DNA of 64,000 nucleotides, taken from Candidatus Fermentibacterota bacterium. Lineage in GTDB: Bacteria; Fermentibacterota; Fermentibacteria; Fermentibacterales; JCC-6. The position numbers and the translations under genes are program-made. Below are positions 1-9,494 of the stretch, one piece after another; the first letter of the stretch is position 1, and the number at the start of each line of letters is the position of its first letter. The notes under the pieces were generated by a model. It saw nothing but the letters and a program-made list of their open reading frames with translations, had not been told where the DNA came from and made no database searches. Location: assembly GCA_963845085.1 (NCBI GenBank), contig CAWJQI010000004.1:768001-832000 (forward strand). The letters run 5' to 3'.

Positions 1-1017
1 TTCATCGTGTCATGGGTATGGATAATCGCAAGCATATGGAAAGGAACCAAGACGGTGGGGCGTGTTGTCTACTACACCGTCATCATCCCGTGGGTGCTGC
101 TGCTGGTGTTCATAATAAGGGGCGTTACACTGCCGGGGGCGGGTGTCGGGCTTGCCTATTACCTCACACCCGATTGGGCGCGGCTTCTCAGCGGTGATAT
201 CTGGCTTGCGGCGCTGACCCAGGTTTTCTTCAGCCTGAGCGTCGGGTTCGGTGTGATGATAGCCTACGGCAGCTTCCTTCCGAAGAAGACAGACATAGCG
301 GGGAGCGCGTTCATAATCGGAATTGCCGACTCGCTCACCGCCTTCTGCTGCGGAATAGCGGTGTTCAGCGCTCTCGGATTCCAGGCGGCACGGCTCGGTG
401 TTCCTGTAAGCGAGGTTGTCAAATCCGGTCCGGGGCTTGCTTTCGTGGCCTATCCGCACATCATCACAAGCCTGCCCGCTGCTCCCGTATTCGGGGTGCT
501 GTTTTTCCTCATGCTCCTCACCCTGGCAATTGATTCTGCATTCAGCCTTGTCGAGGGGGTGACATCATCCCTGAAGGACAAGTGGGGGCTGTCGCACAGG
601 AAGGTCAACCTCATGGTGGGAACGGCGGCGTTCATCTTCGGGTTGCCGATGCTCTCAGGTGCGGGGTTGTACATCCTGGACATAGTTGACCACTTCATGA
701 ACAGCGTTGCGCTGGTTCTTGTTGTTCTGGGGCAGCTCATAATCGTCGGCTGGGCCCTGTCCGCCGAGAAGATGCGCACCTACATCAACGCAAACTCGTC
801 GATAAGGACAGGCTGGTGGTGGAACACAAGCATCAGGTGGATCATCCCGATGGGAATGATCTGGATGCTTGCAAGCGAGCTTCAGGCCAGGGGGGCATCC
901 GCATACGGGAATTTCGGCCTTCGTAGCCAGGAATTCATCCTGGGGTGGCTTGTGGTGATGCTGCTTCCCGTGCTGGGCGACGTTTTTGCGTCACGAAAGG
1001 GAACCTGGAAGGACTAG
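1..1017 (+). CDS. Sodium-dependent transporter, NSS/SNF (neurotransmitter:sodium symporter) family; 5'-truncated by the window edge
   Basis: Open from base 1. Multi-TM protein with family motifs RGVTLPGA, W..ALTQVFFSLSVGFG.MIAYGS, GPGLAFVAYP and FFLML.TLAIDS. Confidence 0.92.
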   Translation, partial: FIVSWVWIIASIWKGTKTVGRVVYYTVIIPWVLLLVFIIRGVTLPGAGVGLAYYLTPDWARLLSGDIWLAALTQVFFSLSVGFGVMIAYGSFLPKKTDIAGSAFIIGIADSLTAFCCGIAVFSALGFQAARLGVPVSEVVKSGPGLAFVAYPHIITSLPAAPVFGVLFFLMLLTLAIDSAFSLVEGVTSSLKDKWGLSHRKVNLMVGTAAFIFGLPMLSGAGLYILDIVDHFMNSVALVLVVLGQLIIVGWALSAEKMRTYINANSSIRTGWWWNTSIRWIIPMGMIWMLASELQARGASAYGNFGLRSQEFILGWLVVMLLPVLGDVFASRKGTWKD

Positions 1018-2123
1018 TACCCCCCCAGCGCAGGACAGGTCGAGCAGTCCGACGAGACGCATTCGAGATCGGCCCGGATGAGATAGCTGAAACCGGAATC
1101 GGGTTCGCACCGGTATCCGAAACCGGTCACGTACTGGAAAACGATGCCTGACCTTTCGGTATCGTACGGTTCGTACTCCACCGCGAACAATCGGAATCTG
1201 CGCGCCTCGGCCTCCAGCACCGCCTGCTGCTGCCAGTCTGAAAGAACAGCTTCCGACCTGTGATCGAACCACCAGGGGCCGATGACACCGGACAGCTCCG
1301 GGATCCTGCCGAGCGCTTCCAGCCAATCCGTGGTGTCGGCTGAAACCACGACCATCGGGGGCATTTCAGCTCCGGAAAGGTCTTCCGCGAGTTCGAGCCC
1401 CCTGTCGCCCGCCATGCCGGTGAAGGTCAGAAGGTAAAGGGTATCCTGGTCCGTGGCGCTCCAGACGCCGGACCGGTCGTTCTGCGGTTCGACAAGCAGG
1501 GGGTCGGCAGGCTGCGAATAGTACGCCGCAAGCCCCCTGATGCCGATGACCATGAAGTACACGGCCACGAATACGGCGAGTACCCTGGCGGCCGCCGTGA
1601 ACCATTTTCTGGCCGTGAAAAGACCGGCGATGGAAAGCGGCAGCATGTAGACCGTTGTTCCAAAGAAGAATCCCGCAAACAGAAGCGCGCCGCTCAGCGC
1701 GCCTCCCGCATCGAACGCGCTTGTGAGGGCAATAAGGAATGCCGGGCATAACGAGAAGCCTGTGAGAATGCCAAGAAGGAAGGGGCTGCCCGTAAACTTC
1801 GTCCAGCGGGATACACCGCAGCCCCCGCACTTTTTATTAACCCTCAGGGTGCTGATCAGAAGAAAGATGCTGAACAGGATGTAGCCCGCGAAGGAGAGGG
1901 GTATCCTGATACCGGATGGGATGCTCCCCCCGAGCATGCCGATGACTGCTCCGAAACAGACGTAGGCTGCGAACCTTCCCAGGTTCAGGGTGAGCAGGAC
2001 CAAGAGCGATTGTCTGCCGCTCCTCTTCTCGCTGAAGAGGTAAGCCGCGTAGACCGGACCGCACGAGGCCAGACAGGACACTCCCGTTGCGAGTCCGAGG
2101 CTCAGCCCCTCAGCAAGCGCCAC
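1014..2123 (-). CDS. DsbD_2/CcdA-like (TauE/SafE-type) membrane protein with a Cys-rich C-terminal soluble extension
   Basis: About 6 TM helices in the first ~200 aa. SCLASCGP in TM1, NLGR..Y, LG..TGFSLCP, F..GT; loop KKCGGCG; C-terminus ECVSSDCSTCP. Confidence 0.7.
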   Translation of the reverse strand: MALAEGLSLGLATGVSCLASCGPVYAAYLFSEKRSGRQSLLVLLTLNLGRFAAYVCFGAVIGMLGGSIPSGIRIPLSFAGYILFSIFLLISTLRVNKKCGGCGVSRWTKFTGSPFLLGILTGFSLCPAFLIALTSAFDAGGALSGALLFAGFFFGTTVYMLPLSIAGLFTARKWFTAAARVLAVFVAVYFMVIGIRGLAAYYSQPADPLLVEPQNDRSGVWSATDQDTLYLLTFTGMAGDRGLELAEDLSGAEMPPMVVVSADTTDWLEALGRIPELSGVIGPWWFDHRSEAVLSDWQQQAVLEAEARRFRLFAVEYEPYDTERSGIVFQYVTGFGYRCEPDSGFSYLIRADLECVSSDCSTCPALGGY

Positions 2124-2147
2124 CGACTCCCCTTTCCGGGTTGAGGC

Positions 2148-3353
2148 CTAAATGTGCGCCGCAGGGTAGAAGGCCAACCCGCCCTGAAAGGAGTTCCAGA
2201 CTTCAGTGTACTCCAGTTCGGAGGCCTGGCGGCGAAGAAGGAACCATGCGGACAGACCGTTCTTCATCCTGTATTCCAGCCCCCCGCCGAAGGTTTCACG
2301 CCTGCGGGTGCCGCCTGTGCCGGGAATGCTGCTGGGACCCTCCCAAATTCTTCCGTTCACGAGAACCGAAAGACCCCTGTAGACACCAACCCTGGCTTCC
2401 ATCTCCCCGAAGCGGGTGCGGATGAAGCTGTCGGTGTTCTGGCCGTAAAAACTGATGCTGGAAGGTTGTTCTCCCCATCCGGCGAATGCGTACCTGAGCC
2501 TCGCGCCAACCTGGTAAGCCGCGAGCCTTGTAACATCGTCATCGAAATCGATGGTCTGGCACACCGTGAAGTTGAAGGTGAGGTTCCTGGCAAGCGTTTG
2601 AACCGCCCGCATCCTTGCGGTAGCCCTGTCGGGGAGCGGGGTTCCGTTGTGGTCGTCGCCGCTCTGAACCGACCATGCCAGGTCGGCCATGACCTGGGTC
2701 TGTGTGGGAAGGGTGCGGGGAGCGAGTGATGCGGCGAAGTTCAGCCTGCCGTAGGACTCGTCAAAGGCAGTTTCATCGATTACAGTGCTGTGCGACAAAC
2801 CGCTCACGCCCAGATCGACGCCCAGCGGAGTGAACCAGGTGACCCCGCCACCAGCCCTTGTTTCGGCCCAGGAAAGGTCCTGCCCGTCCTGGTCCAACAC
2901 GCTTCTGTCCCAGTAGCGTCCGAAGGCATTGAGCTTCACAGTTCCAGGAATCTCCCAGCCCAGGTTCAGTCCGGGCCTTACAGAGCTCGAACGCTCCCCG
3001 ATCCCCTCGGAGCGGGGAAGGACGACACCGGAACTGTCGAAATCGGTTGTGAAACGGAAATCCGGCCGAACCGTGAAACCACCTGCACTGTAACGTACCG
3101 AAAGTGTTGTCTCGGAGCGGTTCCGGGAAAAGCGGGGAAGCGCCGCATTGTCTTCGGATGCTTTCCGGTATGTCTGGTCAAGCTGGAAATGCCACGGCCC
3201 CTGGAACACCCGGACACCGGCGGAAGCGTCAAGGTAGGATCCGCCCCCGTAATTCACGCTGTCGCCCGCAACGGCAATGCGGGCGTACTCTTCCACACCG
3301 AGAGCCATGCAGCTCGCGAGGAATCCCGACAGGAGTATGATGAGGGTTTTCAT
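2148..3353 (-). CDS. Putative outer-membrane beta-barrel protein (~400 aa)
   Basis: ATG at 3353 overlaps the upstream TGA (TGATG). Signal peptide MKTLIILLSGFLASCMALG, many amphipathic Gly/aromatic strands (GLNLGWE, GGGVTWF, GARLRYAF, GGGLEYR), last strand FQGGLAFY. Confidence 0.7.
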   Translation of the reverse strand: MKTLIILLSGFLASCMALGVEEYARIAVAGDSVNYGGGSYLDASAGVRVFQGPWHFQLDQTYRKASEDNAALPRFSRNRSETTLSVRYSAGGFTVRPDFRFTTDFDSSGVVLPRSEGIGERSSSVRPGLNLGWEIPGTVKLNAFGRYWDRSVLDQDGQDLSWAETRAGGGVTWFTPLGVDLGVSGLSHSTVIDETAFDESYGRLNFAASLAPRTLPTQTQVMADLAWSVQSGDDHNGTPLPDRATARMRAVQTLARNLTFNFTVCQTIDFDDDVTRLAAYQVGARLRYAFAGWGEQPSSISFYGQNTDSFIRTRFGEMEARVGVYRGLSVLVNGRIWEGPSSIPGTGGTRRRETFGGGLEYRMKNGLSAWFLLRRQASELEYTEVWNSFQGGLAFYPAAHI

Positions 3354-3595
3354 CAGTACACCGCTCCCTTCGGGCATATCTCAACGCAACGGTAGCAGAG
3401 ACGGCAGAGGTTGGGATTGATCACGGCATCGCCATCCACAACCTCGATGGCGTTGTAGGGGCATACCTTTTCGCACTCGCCGCAACCTATGCAGAGATCG
3501 TTGTCCACCACCAGACCGGTGTTTTCCGTTGGAGGTCTGCAGGCGGCCATGACGAGCAGGACACCGATGATGAGCAGCTCAGTGAATCGCATCAT
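3353..3595 (-). CDS. Small 2x[4Fe-4S] ferredoxin-domain lipoprotein
   Basis: Start at ATG 3595 or 3592 (MRFTELLIIGVLLVMAAC, lipobox-like). Motifs CIGCGECEKVCP and CRLCYRCVEICP. Confidence 0.85.
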   Translation of the reverse strand: MMRFTELLIIGVLLVMAACRPPTENTGLVVDNDLCIGCGECEKVCPYNAIEVVDGDAVINPNLCRLCYRCVEICPKGAVY

Positions 3596-3809
3596 ATGTG
3601 CACACCCCCTGACACAGCCCGCAGCCGATGCATGTTTCGGGATCAATGCTGGACTTGCCGCCTTCAACCTCTATGGCGTTCACGGGACAGACCCGCGAGC
3701 AATCCCCACAGCCCGAGCAGTTGTCGGGCTCGACCCAGTACCGAACCGCTCCCACGGCGATTGCAGCCGTGAGGCAGAGAACAAGAAGCATCCCCCCCCG
3801 AAAACGCAT
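3579..3809 (-). CDS. Small 2x[4Fe-4S] ferredoxin with N-terminal signal peptide
   Basis: Leader MRFRGGMLLVLCLTAAIAVG; motifs CSGCGDCSRVCP and CIGCGLCQGVCT; TGATG overlap with the upstream gene. Confidence 0.87.
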   Translation of the reverse strand: MRFRGGMLLVLCLTAAIAVGAVRYWVEPDNCSGCGDCSRVCPVNAIEVEGGKSSIDPETCIGCGLCQGVCTYDAIH

Positions 3810-4225
3810 CAGTTCACCTCGAATTCGACATCTATCGGGGTTTCCTCTTCGTTCACCCCGTAAAGCTCAAGGTTTTCCTCACCAACGGTCACAATGGCGC
3901 CCACCGGGCACGATGCAACACAGGCGCCACAAAGAATGCACTTCTCGGGATCGATCCAGGCCTTGTTGTCTTCGGTTATGCTGATGGCGCCGACGGGGCA
4001 GGTGTTCACGCAGATTCGGCAGCCAATGCAGGTGTCGGGGTTGATTATGTAATCCTCGTTGAGCTCGACCGAGCTAACCCCGGGGGCAACCTCGGCCATG
4101 ACGCGGCCGAATGACTTGACCCGGATTGTATCGAATTCGCCCTCAACCGGTCCCCAGCTCAGGGTGAAAAGCCCGGCAGCCGCCACAGCCGCCACGACAG
4201 GAATGATCATAAGGTGTTTTTTCAT
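3809..4225 (-). CDS. 2x[4Fe-4S] ferredoxin-domain protein with N-terminal signal peptide or anchor
   Basis: Leader MKKHLMIIPVVAAVAAAG; motifs CIGCRICVNTCP and CILCGACVASCP; AAAGGA upstream. Confidence 0.87.
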   Translation of the reverse strand: MKKHLMIIPVVAAVAAAGLFTLSWGPVEGEFDTIRVKSFGRVMAEVAPGVSSVELNEDYIINPDTCIGCRICVNTCPVGAISITEDNKAWIDPEKCILCGACVASCPVGAIVTVGEENLELYGVNEEETPIDVEFEVN

Positions 4226-4249
4226 TGTAAATCCTTTCGCTACGAAGGG

Positions 4250-5221
4250 TTACCTGTCGGGAGGGGGCGGAGGAACATCGGGCAGGGTTCCGGCAGGTAT
4301 CGCAAGCCTTCTCACGGCCTGATTGTGGGGATAACTCTCGTCGGGATTAATGACTTCATTGTAGTTCCAGCACTCAAGGAAGCACTGACCGCAGTTCACG
4401 CAGAGGTCGTAGTTGATATAGACCATGTACTTGTCGCCGTAGACGCCTTCAAGATCCTGCCAGATCGCGTCGTACGGGCAGGAGGGACCGGTGTAGACCC
4501 CGCTCTTGGTGTATTCATTCAGAAGGGAGCAACCGGATACACAGGTGCCGGTCGAGTCCGGGGCTGAAGGCGAACAGTGGAGACAGCCACCGGTGGGAAT
4601 ATGGTCGTAAATGTAGGTTACGATCTGCATGGGGACTGAGGAAACCTGCAGGTCTTCGGAGGCCTCGGCCTCGCCGAAGTAAGCCCTGATGCCCACATAA
4701 TAACCCTCTCCAAGGCGGCCGTCGGTTATGGCATCGACCGGGCAGGCATCGACACACAGCCCGCAGCTTCCGCAGAGCGCTTCGTCGATCACGGCAACAC
4801 CGTTCTGAATGGTGATGGCTCCGACTGGGCAGGCTGCCTCACAAAGCCCGCAGCCTATGCAGGTCTCGGGTATCACCTTGGGTTGCAGAAACACGAGAGC
4901 CGAGTCGGCAGGTGCGGATATCTCTGCGGCGATGATGGCGCTTTCCCAGTTGTCGAGCGTGATGGGTGCGGTGGAAATGCGCGCCTGATACCAGGAGGCT
5001 CCCTCGACAGGGGTGAAGTGGACAGTGAAGGCCCTGTACTCCCCCCCGCTGATCCATGTGTAGAACGAGCCGAGTTCCGGTGACATGGCGGTGAAGCCCG
5101 AATCCACCAGGACCGCTCCAGACTGGAGCACGGTGGGCGCCATGGGCCGGGGCGTCTCGGTGAGACAGGCCACCATCACGGCAAGAACCACGGCAAGGGC
5201 AACGAAAGATCCCTTGAGCAT
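4250..5221 (-). CDS. Poly-ferredoxin lipoprotein (two canonical plus up to two atypical [4Fe-4S] motifs)
   Basis: Leader [19 protein letters not shown] (lipobox-like). [24 protein letters not shown], then CLHC-x10-C-x3-C-x16-CP and [16 protein letters not shown] upstream. Confidence 0.85.
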
Positions 5222-5381: not shown

Positions 5382-5729
5382 ATGATGAGAATTGCTCTGG
5401 AACCGGAGTTGTCCCGCAAGAAGCTTTTCAACGGCGAGGGTGAGGCGCTGATCGAGAGCCTTTTTGCACCGGCCGACTTCAGCACGAAGGTCAGGCTGTG
5501 CGCACGCATAACCCTGCCCGCCGGTGCCTCGATCGGCCATCACGTTCACCAGGGGGAGGATGAGGTTTACTACATCCTTTCCGGAAAAGGTCGCGTGTTC
5601 GACGGGCAGGAAAGTTATGACGTCGAGCCCGGGTCGGCTGTTCTAACCCGCAGCGGCGAGGGACACGGGCTTTCGAACACCGGGCGCGACGACCTGGTGC
5701 TGCTGGCTGTGATCCCCTTGCAGCAGTAG
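5382..5729 (+). CDS. Cupin domain protein
   Basis: HHVH...DEVYYILSGKG and H.LSN.G motifs; 115 aa. Confidence 0.88.
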   Translation: MMRIALEPELSRKKLFNGEGEALIESLFAPADFSTKVRLCARITLPAGASIGHHVHQGEDEVYYILSGKGRVFDGQESYDVEPGSAVLTRSGEGHGLSNTGRDDLVLLAVIPLQQ

Positions 5730-5748: not shown

Positions 5749-5839
5749 GGAGGGGTGCCAGAGTGGTTGAACGGGACGGTCTCGAAAACCGTTGACTCCC
5801 TTTGGGGGTCCGTGGGTTCGAATCCCACCCCCTCCGCCA
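5749..5839 (+). tRNA. tRNA-Ser(CGA)
   Basis: Acceptor stem GGAGGGG/CCCCTCC, discriminator G plus encoded CCA, anticodon arm ACGGT-CT-CGA-AA-ACCGT, long variable arm, GGTTCGAATCCC T-arm. Confidence 0.97.
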
Positions 5840-5894: not shown

Positions 5895-7647
5895 TTACCT
5901 CAGCAGACACACTGTTTCTGTAACGTCTCCAAGGGGGGACGACAGTACCAGCGTGTAGATGCCGGAAGGCAGCCTGCCGCCGGAATCGTCTGTTCCTCCC
6001 CAACTGAGACTATGGATCCTGCCTGGTACTCGCCGCTGTGGATAGTTCCCACAAGCCTGCCGGAGATGTCGAAGACCCGGAGTGACGACCAGCAGGGCGA
6101 ATCCAGTTCGAAGGAAACCATTGTGTTCGAGGCGAACGGATTGGGACGGACCGACAGCACCGGACGGTAAGAGCTTCCGGGATCGGTGACTATACCTGTC
6201 TGGGTCACCGTGAACTGGATGGTATCGCTCGCGGCAACGACACCTCCGGACCAGGAGTCGATGATCAGCTCGTTGGATCCCACCTGGGCGTAGAGGTCGT
6301 CACGATAGGTCCACTTCAGGCCCGTGCCGAAGGCGTAGAGATTGTAGTCCGTGGAGCGGCGAAGTACATCACACCGTCGGTGATGGCAGGGCTGCCTGCA
6401 AGACCCATCTGACTGGTTCCGTTTCGTAGCTCCAGATCATCCCGCCCGTTCGGCGTCGGCGGCGTTGATCAGGCCGTCGAATCAGCGCAGAAGCCTCCCC
6501 AGAAGACAAGCCCGTCCGCGACACCGGCAGACCGTGGAGCCGCTTCTGCGATGGAGGTTCGGGTTAAGGAACCAGACTCAATGGATCCGTCGGATGAATC
6601 GAGAGCGGCCAAACACCGGATTGGATGGTGGAAGTACTTCTGAGCCGCAAAAACACGGTGCCGTCATGAATACGGCGGGGTCGGCTCGACTGGGTATATC
6701 CCCCACGTTGAGACGGTGTCTCCCAGACCAGCGCATCCGTAAAGGGCGTCGAACCTGTGGATACAGGCGCTTTTCGGAAATGCTGCCGATGTAAATGATA
6801 CCGTCCACGAGGCATGGAGAAGAGTCCCAGAAGCCATCCTCGCACTCGAAGTTCAACCAGAGCATGTCTACCGGTTTCGGCATGAAGGGCGGTGAGACCG
6901 TACTGCCCGCGGTCCGAAAAGAACGGTCGTTCCATGCTGTCAGGGTGCAGACGCTGACCGAGGGGTTCCTGCGTCCTCCAGATCTCCTGGCCGGTAAGAA
7001 TGTCGAGTGCGTATACATAAGCGCATGATGCGAAGACGCGATGTCATCGTAGACAGCATGGAGGCCCGGCAAAGAATATATCAGGCCCGGAACCCCACCC
7101 GAAATCCCAGACTCTTTCGACCCGTCTGATGGCATCGAGACAGTAGAGCTGAATCAGATGCGAGGTAAATGCGTACCCGTTCTGGACATGCAGTCCCGAT
7201 CGTCAGAATCCAGGGTCTGATAGGCCCTCAAAATGCCAGATCTCTTCTCCTGTCGCGGCATCGAGGGCATGTAGATCCTATCCCTATATTCCGACGAATA
7301 GAAGTACCACGCCGTCGACTACGATACGGATGTGGCAAATTCGTGATGCGCTCCGGTGACGGGCGCTGTCCAGAGCATCACCGTTTGTCAGTGCGGCGCG
7401 GAGATTCGGAGAACCCGGTACGAGCATTGTTCTGCCATGTAGGTGTGACCAGTCGGTGACGAGCCGTGGAACCGGCAGCGAACGGTTCTCCGTTCAGGGA
7501 GAAGACCACCGAATCCGGCAGAGCATTCTCGTTCTCGACGATTGCCCTGAGGGTCAGCCAGTCGCCGTCGTAAACGCCTCCGTCGGCCGGCTCGATGATG
7601 GAAACGCTTACCGCCGATAGAATGCCGAGCAGAAGACAAACCGCCAT
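5895..7647 (-). pseudogene. Multiply frameshifted paralog of the secreted PQQ-like beta-propeller / FlgD-Ig protein
   Basis: AAGGAGG plus ATG at 7647 (MAVCLLLGILSAVSVSIIEPADGG) and TAA at 5895-5897 match copy 2. Recognisable pieces (GFWDSSPCLVDGIIYIG; NLYAFGTGLKWTYRDDLYAQVGSNE) lie in different frames. May be consensus error rather than true decay. Confidence 0.75.
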
Positions 7648-7679
7648 GAATGCCTCCTTAGTGCTACAATGTGTCCGTG

Positions 7680-7708
7680 AGAATAAAGTGGAGGCAGCCG
7701 CGAGTCAA
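7680..7708 (-). promoter_or_regulatory. Sigma70-type promoter of repeat unit 1
   Basis: Minus strand TTGACT-17 nt-TATTCT, ending ~33 nt upstream of the ATG; identical in unit 2. Confidence 0.6.
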
Positions 7709-7728
7709 CGCCTCGGAAAACTCAATGA

Positions 7729-7754
7729 AAGCGGGAGGCTTCCGCCCCCCGCTT
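7729..7754. terminator. Hairpin downstream of propeller gene copy 2
   Basis: AAGCGGGAGGC-TTCC-GCCCCCCGCTT, ~20 nt past the TAA at 7776. Confidence 0.55.
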
Positions 7755-7775
7755 CATGCATTCAATCCCCTGCGT

Positions 7776-9462
7776 TTACCTCAGCAGACACACTGTTTCT
7801 GTAACGTCTCCCAGGGGGGACGACAGTACCAGCGTGTAGATGCCGGAAGGCAGCCTGCCGCCGGAATCGTCTGTTCCTCCCCAACTGAGACTATGGGATC
7901 CCGCCTGGTACTCGCCGCTTTGGATAGTTCCCACAAGCCTGCCGGAGATGTCGAAGACCCGGAGTGACGACCAGCAGGGCGAATCCAGTTCGAAGGAAAC
8001 CATTGTGTTCGAGGCGAACGGATTGGGACGGACCGACAGCACCGGACGGTAAGAGCTTCCGGGATCGGTGACTATTCCGGTCTGGGTCACCGTGAACTGG
8101 ATGGTGTCGCTTGCGGCCACGACACCGCCGGACCAGGAGTCGATGATCAGCTCGTTGCTCGCCGACCTGGGCATAGAGATCGTCACGATAGGTCCACTTC
8201 AGGCCCGTGCCGAAGGCGTAGAGGTTGCCGTCGGTGGAGCCGAAGTACATGACGCCGTCGGTGACAGAAGGTGTGCCCTGAAGACCCCACTCTCCAGGAT
8301 TCGGGTGATACTCCCAGATTATGTTGCCTGTTGCTGCATCCGCTGCGCAGATGTTGTCGTAGGGAGCGTGGCACCCTCCCCAGAATGCCACACCGTCGGC
8401 TATCGCCACCGAACCATGAAGACTGCCGGGAATGGACCATTGGATCGACCCGTCCGAGCAGGCAAGCGCAGCGACACAGCCGTCCGACGATCCGAAGCCG
8501 ATGTTCCCGCACAGCACCATATCACCAAAGACGGCGGGGGTGGGTTCAGTGGAAACGGTACCCAGCTGGGTCTCCCACTCCAGATCTCCCGTCAGTGCAT
8601 CGAACCTGTGAACCGCGCCGTCATACCCTCCGATGTAGATCTTCCCGTCAAGCAGCGTTGGAGAGGTGTCCCAGTAGCCACCCTCGGTTGCGGAGTTTGC
8701 CCAGAGGACCTCACCGGTGAGTGCGTCAAGAGCGCACAGGGGACCCATGTATGTTCCGACGAAGAACATCCCGTTCCAGCCCGCAATGCAGTTCCCGATG
8801 GCACCCTCGATCTCGCTGCTCCATGCAACAGCGCCGCTTTCCCTTATCAGGCCGAACACAGTCGTCTTGTTGGTCTGGTAGCTTCCGGTGGCGCAGGCCA
8901 CGATCCCATTCATGACACATGGTGTTCCACCTTCAAGGTCAGCGCCGTAAAAAGCCCACTGCCTCTCTCCGGTCAGCGCATCGATGCAGTAGATGGAGTC
9001 AGACGCAACGTACAGCATGCCTTCATGGCAGGCGGGAGCATCATCATGCTCTCCAATTTCGAAGCTCCAGTTCTCGGCGCCGGTCGCCGCATCGAGTGAG
9101 AAGACCTTTTCGATGCCCACGTGGTAAACGTTGCCGTCAACCACGACCGGGTTCTCGAACACATGAAGACTGTCGCATACGGGGGCGGTCCAGAGTATCT
9201 CACTGGTCATCGGGGCGGGAGATAGTGAGAAGCCCTGATGCAGATTGTTCTGCATGTAGGTTGGCCAGTCCGTACTGAGCCTTGGCACCGGCAGGAACGG
9301 TTCTCCGTTCAGGGAGAAGACCACTGAATCCGGCAGAGAGTTCTCGTTCTCGACAATTGTTTTCAACGTGAGCCAGTCGCCGTCGTAAACGCCTCCGTCG
9401 GCGGGCTCGACGATGGAAACGCTTACCGCCGATAGTATGCCGAGCAGAAGACAAACCTCCAT
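7776..9462 (-). CDS. Secreted PQQ-like (BamB-type) beta-propeller protein with Ig-like flanks and a C-terminal FlgD-Ig/T9SS-sorting-like domain; one +1 frameshift near 8160
   Basis: GGAGG plus ATG at 9462, signal peptide, DWPTYMQN, repeated (A/S)LDAxTGxxxW blades. The C-terminus PNPF...LRVFDISGRLV...WGGTDDSGGRLPSGIY is in ORF 7776..8186. Copy 1 reads QVGSNE in frame, showing one extra base here. Confidence 0.85.
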
Positions 9463-9494
9463 GAATGCCTCCATAGCGCTACAATGTGTCCGTG

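Follow-up and report, generated by a model that had tools for sequence, protein, structure and literature searches.

We analysed a window of 64,000 nucleotides from a Candidatus Fermentibacterota bacterium (assembly GCA_963845085.1, contig CAWJQI010000004.1, positions 768,001 to 832,000) that carries a cluster of six open reading frames on the minus strand, spanning positions 1014-5221. In an initial annotation made from the sequence, this cluster had been proposed to encode a haem-free envelope electron conduit. Read in the direction of transcription, it comprises four ferredoxin genes (P1 to P4), a barrel gene and a gene of the DsbD_2 family:

P1, 4250..5221, minus strand: 323 aa; lipoprotein (Cys19) whose beta-rich domain holds an inserted 2[4Fe-4S] ferredoxin and is followed by a second ferredoxin domain, with 8 Cys; four clusters possible
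P2, 3809..4225, minus strand: 138 aa; signal peptide; an inserted 2[4Fe-4S] ferredoxin
P3, 3579..3809, minus strand: 76 aa; signal peptide and a minimal (~54 aa) 2[4Fe-4S] ferredoxin; second gene ahead of the barrel and part of the core
P4, 3353..3595, minus strand: 80 aa; lipoprotein (Cys19) in which a 9-residue tether carries a minimal 2[4Fe-4S] ferredoxin; core gene, next to the barrel on its upstream side
Barrel gene, 2148..3353, minus strand: 401 aa; predicted outer-membrane beta-barrel of 20 strands, no plug domain, no family match
DsbD_2 (PF13386) gene, 1014..2123, minus strand: 369 aa, GTG start; inner-membrane protein with a C-terminal soluble domain that ends in a conserved Cys

The junctions, read from the sequence in the same order, are a 24-nucleotide gap, TGATG, a 17-nucleotide overlap, TGATG and a second 24-nucleotide gap, as first described for six co-oriented genes, and the CxxCH motif is indeed absent from all six proteins. 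A scan of the cluster for promoters and terminators performed at chance level.

P1 to P4 all match Pfam Fer4 (E 3e-19 to 4e-16), which bears out the paired CxxCxxCxxxC motifs assigned to these four genes, except that the first motif in the second domain of P1 is atypical. In P1, the lipobox Cys19 and 16 ferredoxin-type cysteines are invariant among 19 homologues, corresponding to two dicluster domains. With eight cysteines in each of P2, P3 and P4, ten [4Fe-4S] clusters are therefore possible across the four proteins, in line with the earlier estimate of ~10. The ferredoxin signatures of the homologues are invariant, including their Pro and Gly positions; in P2, the second Cys is replaced by Asp in 2 of 18 homologues. 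The beta-rich domain of P1 looks fibronectin-III-like by eye and has no Pfam match. We scored the leaders with a hydropathy and regular-expression script, not SignalP. A hydrophobic core was found in every homologue of P1 (19/19), P2 (18/18), P3 (21/21), P4 (21/21) and the barrel (33/33), and it is preceded by basic residues in 18/19, 17/18, 21/21 and 21/21 homologues of P1 to P4, respectively. The two lipobox-like leader ends noted initially were recovered in all homologues of P1 (19/19) and P4 (21/21; Cys19 invariant), and the genome encodes Lgt. The initial annotation had raised the prospect that the leaders would keep the Fe-S domains in the cytoplasm; by this scoring, they look exported.

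The 401-residue protein had been suspected of forming a transmembrane barrel, and AlphaFold2, run on a 33-row alignment, predicted one: 20 strands without a plug (predicted local distance difference test score (pLDDT) 86.5; predicted template-modelling score 0.75), the first strand starting at residue 19. The protein has no sequence match in Pfam, NCBIfam or the PDB. In a fold search, TonB-dependent receptors and other transporter barrels ranked first (Z ~16; BtuB Z 16.7, root-mean-square deviation (rmsd) 4.6, 340 residues aligned), many unrelated barrels scored within 2 Z of the best with identities of 6-12%, and a 20-strand conduit porin was not among the matches listed. As generic barrels top the search, the fold indicates a barrel and says nothing on function. 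A minimal ferredoxin is ~25 Å across, with its clusters ~12 Å apart. The backbone radius of a 20-strand barrel is 17.5-19.6 Å by formula; on these dimensions, two stacked minimal ferredoxins could span the outer membrane. A comparison of the barrel with 1.84 billion representative sequences gave 21 matches, 19 of them at 1e-10 or better, and its profile gave 15 matches among clustered proteins, none new in kind. An atlas search returned unnamed barrel clusters at 0.96-0.97, with a recognition value below threshold and thus as a lead only, and nothing usable for P1.

The DsbD/CcdA-like assignment of the last gene stands, with a match to PF13386 over residues 7-191 (E 4e-22). Residues C17, C21, C99, C102 and C126-P127 are invariant, and Cys17, Cys21, Cys102 and Cys126-Pro are kept across the three phyla described below. 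Hydropathy analysis found five membrane segments; at its threshold, the first helix went undetected. A PDB profile search found no solved relative, and homologues carry transporter-like public names ('sulfite exporter TauE/SafE'). No thioredoxin-like partner was present among the recurring flank families of 55 Fermentibacterota loci, to which this search was confined. Separately, an apparent fusion of DsbD_2 to a citrate-lyase-like sequence (L044:4677-7031) crosses a stretch of Ns and is an assembly-gap artefact.

The six genes are real and belong to the core of Ca. Fermentibacterota. Of 70 genomes, 63 have the barrel, as do 44 of the 46 of high quality, and it occurs in all 14 genera. Among the 55 loci, which we gathered via DsbD_2 and which overlap 20 other regions examined (they are kin, not independent samples), the barrel gene lies directly upstream in every case and all six genes occur in order in 46. 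Eight of the remaining loci are cut by contig ends, and one (L101, genome G010) lacks P1, which is found on another contig. The gene order is kept in all three families of the phylum, and chance is therefore excluded. Co-location of the homologues, which the initial annotation had left to a synteny search, thus holds across Fermentibacterota, and a related layout recurs in two further phyla. A gene for cytochrome c maturation (PF01578) was found in none of the 70 Fermentibacterota genomes and in 9 of 14 controls. Four loci (L064, L097, L099 and L103) carry extra P1-like genes or fragments upstream of P1.

A DsbD_2 scan of species genomes yielded 72 loci, 17 of them outside Fermentibacterota, and seven of the 17 have the same layout (L107-L112 and L118; Chitinispirillaceae, Chitinivibrionales, Fibrobacter and Fibrobacteres). 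In five of these (L107, L108, L110, L112 and L118), the first gene encodes a ferredoxin-tipped fibronectin-III lipoprotein of 740-1045 aa; next come four small ferredoxins with export leaders, a protein of 410 aa, DsbD_2 and a NapH-NapG-like protein of 520 aa that contains a twin-Arg within its sequence. L109 is truncated at the start, and the shorter L111 ends in a flavin mononucleotide (FMN)-binding gene. The 410-aa protein is likewise predicted to form a 20-strand barrel (pLDDT 87.4). This barrel occurs in 18 of 296 Fibrobacterota genomes. We examined 20 of 28 matched places, from 14 genomes: two ferredoxin genes lie directly upstream of the barrel in all 20, and DsbD_2 lies in the locus in 11. 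In a third phylum, the barrel is found in 15 of 39 genomes, and ferredoxin genes directly precede it in 12 of 12 loci (12 of 17 matched places); one genome (G074) carries the module apart from its DsbD_2. The barrels of these two phyla are homologous to each other (hhalign 96.6%, E 5e-10). Against models built without the leaders, the second gene upstream of the barrel matched P3 better than P4 in 31 of 32 loci of the two phyla, and the adjoining gene matched P4 better than P3 in 24 of 32; the ferredoxin pair is therefore conserved by position. The core, consisting of a predicted soluble exported ferredoxin, a predicted lipoprotein ferredoxin, a predicted barrel and the DsbD_2 subfamily, is thus shared with Fibrobacterota and the third phylum, a range newly found here.

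The DsbD_2 subfamily tracks the barrel, being present in 18/18 barrel-bearing Fibrobacterota genomes vs 23/296 overall and in 14/15 barrel-bearing genomes of the third phylum vs 16/39 overall. Three carriers (G368, G369 and G073) have no P4 match at 1e-10, and the subfamily therefore also occurs without the module. By analogy with CcdA, DsbD_2, which co-occurs with the barrel even when unlinked and whose cysteines are kept across phyla, would be a natural candidate for a maturation factor, more than for the main point of electron entry. A further scan of metagenomes gave 77 loci, mostly of the Fermentibacterota and Fibrobacterota types, with many DsbD_2 genes that had no module in the DNA at hand. 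One new arrangement, on a low-GC contig (L270:157-4124), joins genes for an FMN-binding protein, a NapH-like protein, DsbD_2 and two exported ferredoxins to one for a probable barrel of 356 aa whose last residue is Phe; the contig possibly represents a fourth lineage.

Several observations on the ferredoxin genes of these phyla stand apart. P1-like ferredoxin lipoproteins occur in Fibrobacterota downstream of DsbD_2 or of a polyferredoxin (L174:9259-10371, L168:11150-11998 and L173:1-496, the last with a Tat-like leader). In the third phylum, the soluble exported ferredoxin is a single in-frame tandem gene in five loci (L280, L281, L288, L290 and L291). In eight others (L282-L287, L289 and L184:7770-7830) the same gene breaks at a run of 9-10 consecutive A just ahead of its stop, and the second ferredoxin opens in the -1 frame exactly at this run. 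Such runs are rare (8 in 84 kb over 7 loci of L282-L289), and the split is a candidate for programmed frameshifting or transcriptional slippage that would yield mono- and di-ferredoxin forms.

The most frequent neighbour of the operon in Fermentibacterota encodes a NapH-like protein (PF12801, E 2e-13). In the window's genome (G000), this gene lies at G000:C4:763928-765298 (L185:9929-11299), 3.7 kb past the end of DsbD_2 and 2.7 kb before window position 1. The protein has a signal peptide, then three 4-Cys repeats, which 36-39 of 39 sequences retain, and lastly membrane helices with two invariant CxxxC motifs. The gene lies 0.4-5.5 kb downstream of the operon in 38 of 55 loci, 38 of the 41 with 3 kb of flank and all 35 with at least 5 kb; genes of NapH type are also present in 7 of 20 Fibrobacterota loci and 3 of 12 in the third phylum. 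In the accessible part of PMC8238504, NapH-like proteins are proposed to be transmembrane electron carriers. The window's cluster has no FMN-binding gene, and the sole match in the genome lies in the rnf operon on another contig (the search did not extend to ApbE). A search of this genome for a fusion of the PFD polyferredoxin type gave weak matches only, the best being the NapH-like gene, and this candidate was set aside.

How the ferredoxins leave the cytoplasm bears directly on whether they could carry clusters. A consensus for twin-arginine translocation (Tat) was found in 1/19 P1, 0/18 P2, 0/21 P3 and 0/21 P4 homologues (1 of 79 in total) and in none of the four proteins of the window; an Arg-Arg pair is present in 9 of 21 P3 leaders. 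TatC is encoded in 66 of 70 Fermentibacterota genomes, in all 46 of high quality and in the window's own. In some Fibrobacterota, P3 leaders are Tat-like, and TatC was present in all five genomes tested from this phylum, so the route of export may differ by lineage. In the third phylum, TatC was found in 4 of 39 genomes (G370, G371, G372 and G385) and in none of the 15 that bear the barrel. A TatA/B/E match was absent from the five barrel-bearing genomes tested; BamA was present in all five and Lgt in four of four tested. As none of the 15 has TatC, their ferredoxins, to judge from gene content and if these genomes are truly without Tat, probably cross unfolded through the general secretion (Sec) pathway, and clusters would then be built outside the cytoplasm.

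Two side observations concern exported proteins of the window's genome. A simple motif scan gave no convincing cofactor-bearing Tat substrate, though TatC is universal in the phylum. Beside the rnf operon lies a gene for a fifth exported ferredoxin (L292:757-1227; G000:C5:368757-369227), with a signal peptide, a 2[4Fe-4S] domain and a C-terminal domain that weakly matches a type IX secretion sorting domain (TIGR04183, E 8e-4, below the cut-off). Full-length homologues occur in 50 of 70 Fermentibacterota genomes, and the protein is possibly a surface carrier.

We consider it somewhat probable that the cluster gives these anaerobic diderm bacteria a haem-free electron path through the envelope, as an analogue of the porin-cytochrome conduits and not a member of that family. 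What we infer here is ferredoxin-barrel binding, cluster content, direction and partner. P3 and P4 would sit in the barrel or at its mouth and pass electrons through the outer membrane, as the Pcc and Mtr cytochromes do. The chain may be lengthened, across the periplasm or outward from the surface, by P1 and P2 or, in other lineages, by ferredoxin lipoproteins on long stalks, and the NapH-like protein would join it to cytoplasmic or membrane electron pools. Electrons would thus pass from the NapH-like protein to periplasmic ferredoxins, to P3 and P4 in the barrel and on to surface ferredoxin lipoproteins. CcdA, which serves cytochrome c maturation, is the model for the proposed role of DsbD_2: the apo-proteins would exit via Sec, and DsbD_2 would keep their cysteines reduced, supply iron or both, so that clusters could form outside the cytoplasm. 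Our guess is that the direction is outward, to polysulfide or elemental sulfur (S0), a mineral or a partner cell, as is most likely for a fermenter. In the accessible parts of two papers, Fermentibacterota are presented as non-respiring fermenters with a possible capacity for sulfur reduction (PMC5030696) and as partners of sulfate-reducing organisms (PMC5763382); disposal of low-potential electrons is plausible from this lifestyle, which is no evidence for this cluster itself. The fuller proposal, of a second, haem-free trans-envelope wire in at least three phyla, in which [4Fe-4S] ferredoxins are exported unfolded, acquire their clusters outside from DsbD_2/NapH-like machinery and thread a 20-strand barrel, is one that we advance tentatively, as slightly short of an even chance.

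A number of findings weigh against these proposals. In the fold search, MtrB ranked lower than the transporter barrels (Z 13.7, rmsd 6.1, 338 aligned), and the barrel of the window is not detectably homologous to the other two families (hhalign E 0.097; E 0.046 and 0.081). The NapH-like gene lies on the strand opposite to the operon. A transporter (25/55 loci) and a small protein family (32/55) recur in the flanks too, and plain synteny may therefore contribute to its linkage. No terminal enzyme or acceptor is encoded nearby. The module stands alongside cytochrome c maturation in 3 of 5 Fibrobacterota tested and, in the third phylum, in 2 of 15 genomes. It is not confined to haem-free genomes, and the idea that module and haem c strictly exclude each other is rejected. 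Exported metal-sulfur proteins normally travel via Tat, according to the part of PMC5449189 accessible to us. One third-phylum genome (G385) has TatC and DsbD_2 without a barrel match, and the Tat counts for this phylum come from genomes whose completeness is not given. Finally, non-canonical Tat export of the window's ferredoxins is possible, because TatC is universal in high-quality Fermentibacterota and some Fibrobacterota P3 leaders are Tat-like.

Four other explanations account for parts of these data. In one, the cluster serves reductive uptake of metal or Fe-S: the barrel would let solutes through, the ferredoxins would reduce or bind iron or another metal in the periplasm, and DsbD_2 and the NapH-like protein would import it. 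TonB-dependent metal receptors are the top fold matches, DsbD_2 homologues bear transporter-like names, and DsbD_2 together with CcoG/NapH-type proteins accompanies copper delivery in cbb3 oxidase clusters. The model, however, lacks a plug and has 20 strands, not 22; no TonB, ABC or Feo gene recurs in the flank families of the 55 loci; ten clusters are a costly means of gaining iron; and long ferredoxin-tipped stalks fit reach better than uptake. We judge this explanation unlikely. Nearly the same low standing goes to an envelope redox buffer or sensor, whose periplasmic or surface clusters would remove oxygen or polysulfide, repair envelope thiols or signal the redox state, with no conduction through the barrel. 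A barrel fixed directly behind two minimal ferredoxins in three phyla would be needless for a purely periplasmic sink, and no regulator or thioredoxin recurs in the flanks, even though Sabulitectum is reported to be a strict anaerobe without many oxidative-stress systems (PMC5763382, accessible part) and envelope thiol chemistry can be fed by DsbD-type proteins (PMC8238504, likewise).

The barrel could also be an export pore for ferredoxin lipoproteins that act on the surface, or the cysteines could bind zinc or form disulfides in structural proteins. Against these ideas speak the solubility of P3, which is no lipoprotein, and the invariance of the full ferredoxin signatures, Pro and Gly included; the change of Cys to Asp in P2 fits a cluster ligand, as in the precedent of Pyrococcus ferredoxin, and not a disulfide. 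We regard this pair of ideas as a shade less likely still, despite two points in its favour: genes for lipoprotein cargo often precede barrel genes, and a pre-inserted cluster is incompatible with Sec export. Least probable, and very much so, is that the leaders are N-out membrane anchors as in RnfB, with cytoplasmic ferredoxin domains. The problem of assembly would then vanish, and the genome's own RnfB has such an anchor. RnfB, however, scores no basic residues before its anchor, whereas they precede the core in nearly all homologues of P1 to P4; the lipobox Cys is invariant and Lgt is encoded.

The remaining features near the cluster are the following. A gene of the sodium:neurotransmitter-symporter family (window 7-1017) is convergent with the operon, its stop overlapping that of DsbD_2, and recurs in 25 of 55 loci. 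On the other side lie a divergent cupin gene (window 5382-5729; 11 of 55 loci), a tRNA-Ser(CGA) (window 5749-5839) and repeated, partly broken beta-propeller genes of the pyrroloquinoline-quinone type (window 5900-9474) with near-identical C-terminal segments; the tRNA and the repeats resemble an insertion site that has seen duplications.

Extracellular electron transfer is surveyed by counting haem motifs (CxxCH), which would miss a conduit made of ferredoxins. If the haem-free conduit is real, abundant fermenters of digesters and sediments would be misread as electrically inert, and 'obligate fermenters' would be able to exchange low-potential electrons with sulfur, minerals or partner cells. 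Where Tat is missing, ferredoxins that carry export leaders make periplasmic Fe-S assembly a testable question; the proteins are small, and laboratory strains can express them. Fe-S proteins have reportedly been found at the surface of Desulfovibrio, though no such report appeared in our literature search. We found no account of the cluster in a literature search that covered mainly open papers without their supplements; clusters resembling L270 could appear in Supplementary file 1 of PMC8238504, and the genes described here in the supplementary annotation of PMC5030696. The accessible parts of PMC11434368 and PMC11705803 describe no such cluster, and the papers searched do not describe extracytoplasmic Fe-S assembly by DsbD_2/NapH-like machinery.

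We compared the cluster with five known systems. TonB-dependent receptors (BtuB, Cir and FusA) give the best fold scores but have 22 strands and an N-terminal plug, vs 20 strands, no plug and ~400 aa here. With the CcdA/DsbD relays, the last protein of the operon shares the PF13386 match and invariant cysteines near the N-terminus and in a Cys-Pro of a later helix, an arrangement that CcdA has as well; it differs in its extra C-terminal domain and in an operon that holds neither a thioredoxin nor a cytochrome client. NapGH and the dual Sec/Tat polyferredoxin PFD (PMC5449189, here and below in its accessible part) are matched by the NapH-like Fer4_5 protein of Fermentibacterota and by the ~520-aa NapH-NapG-like protein with internal twin-Arg that follows DsbD_2 in Fibrobacterota clusters. 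NapG and the outer domain of PFD, however, use Tat, whereas the window's ferredoxins lack a Tat consensus; the NapH-like protein of Fermentibacterota lacks a ferredoxin domain in the cytoplasm and exports its three 4-Cys repeats; and that part of PMC5449189 mentions no barrel. The NapH-like flavinylation systems (PMC8238504, accessible part) also have a PF12801 membrane protein as electron entry, and an FMN-binding gene stands beside the module in L270 and L111 only; the carriers of the window are instead ferredoxins and a barrel. Last, the porin-cytochrome conduits, Geobacter OmaB-OmbB-OmcB (Pcc) and Shewanella MtrCAB, likewise have one operon for a barrel without a plug and two redox proteins, the one soluble and exported, the other a lipoprotein, with an inner-membrane redox protein nearby. 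The 20 strands predicted here fall within the range of the Pcc porins, which have 18-22 predicted motifs, against 28 predicted strands for Mtr (PMC4245776, accessible part). The analogy drawn in the initial annotation is strengthened by barrel size, by the lack of cytochrome c maturation in the phylum and by a NapH-like membrane partner; the cluster departs from both cytochrome features: the carriers are ferredoxin domains instead of multihaem proteins, and the lipoproteins are ferredoxins instead of cytochromes.

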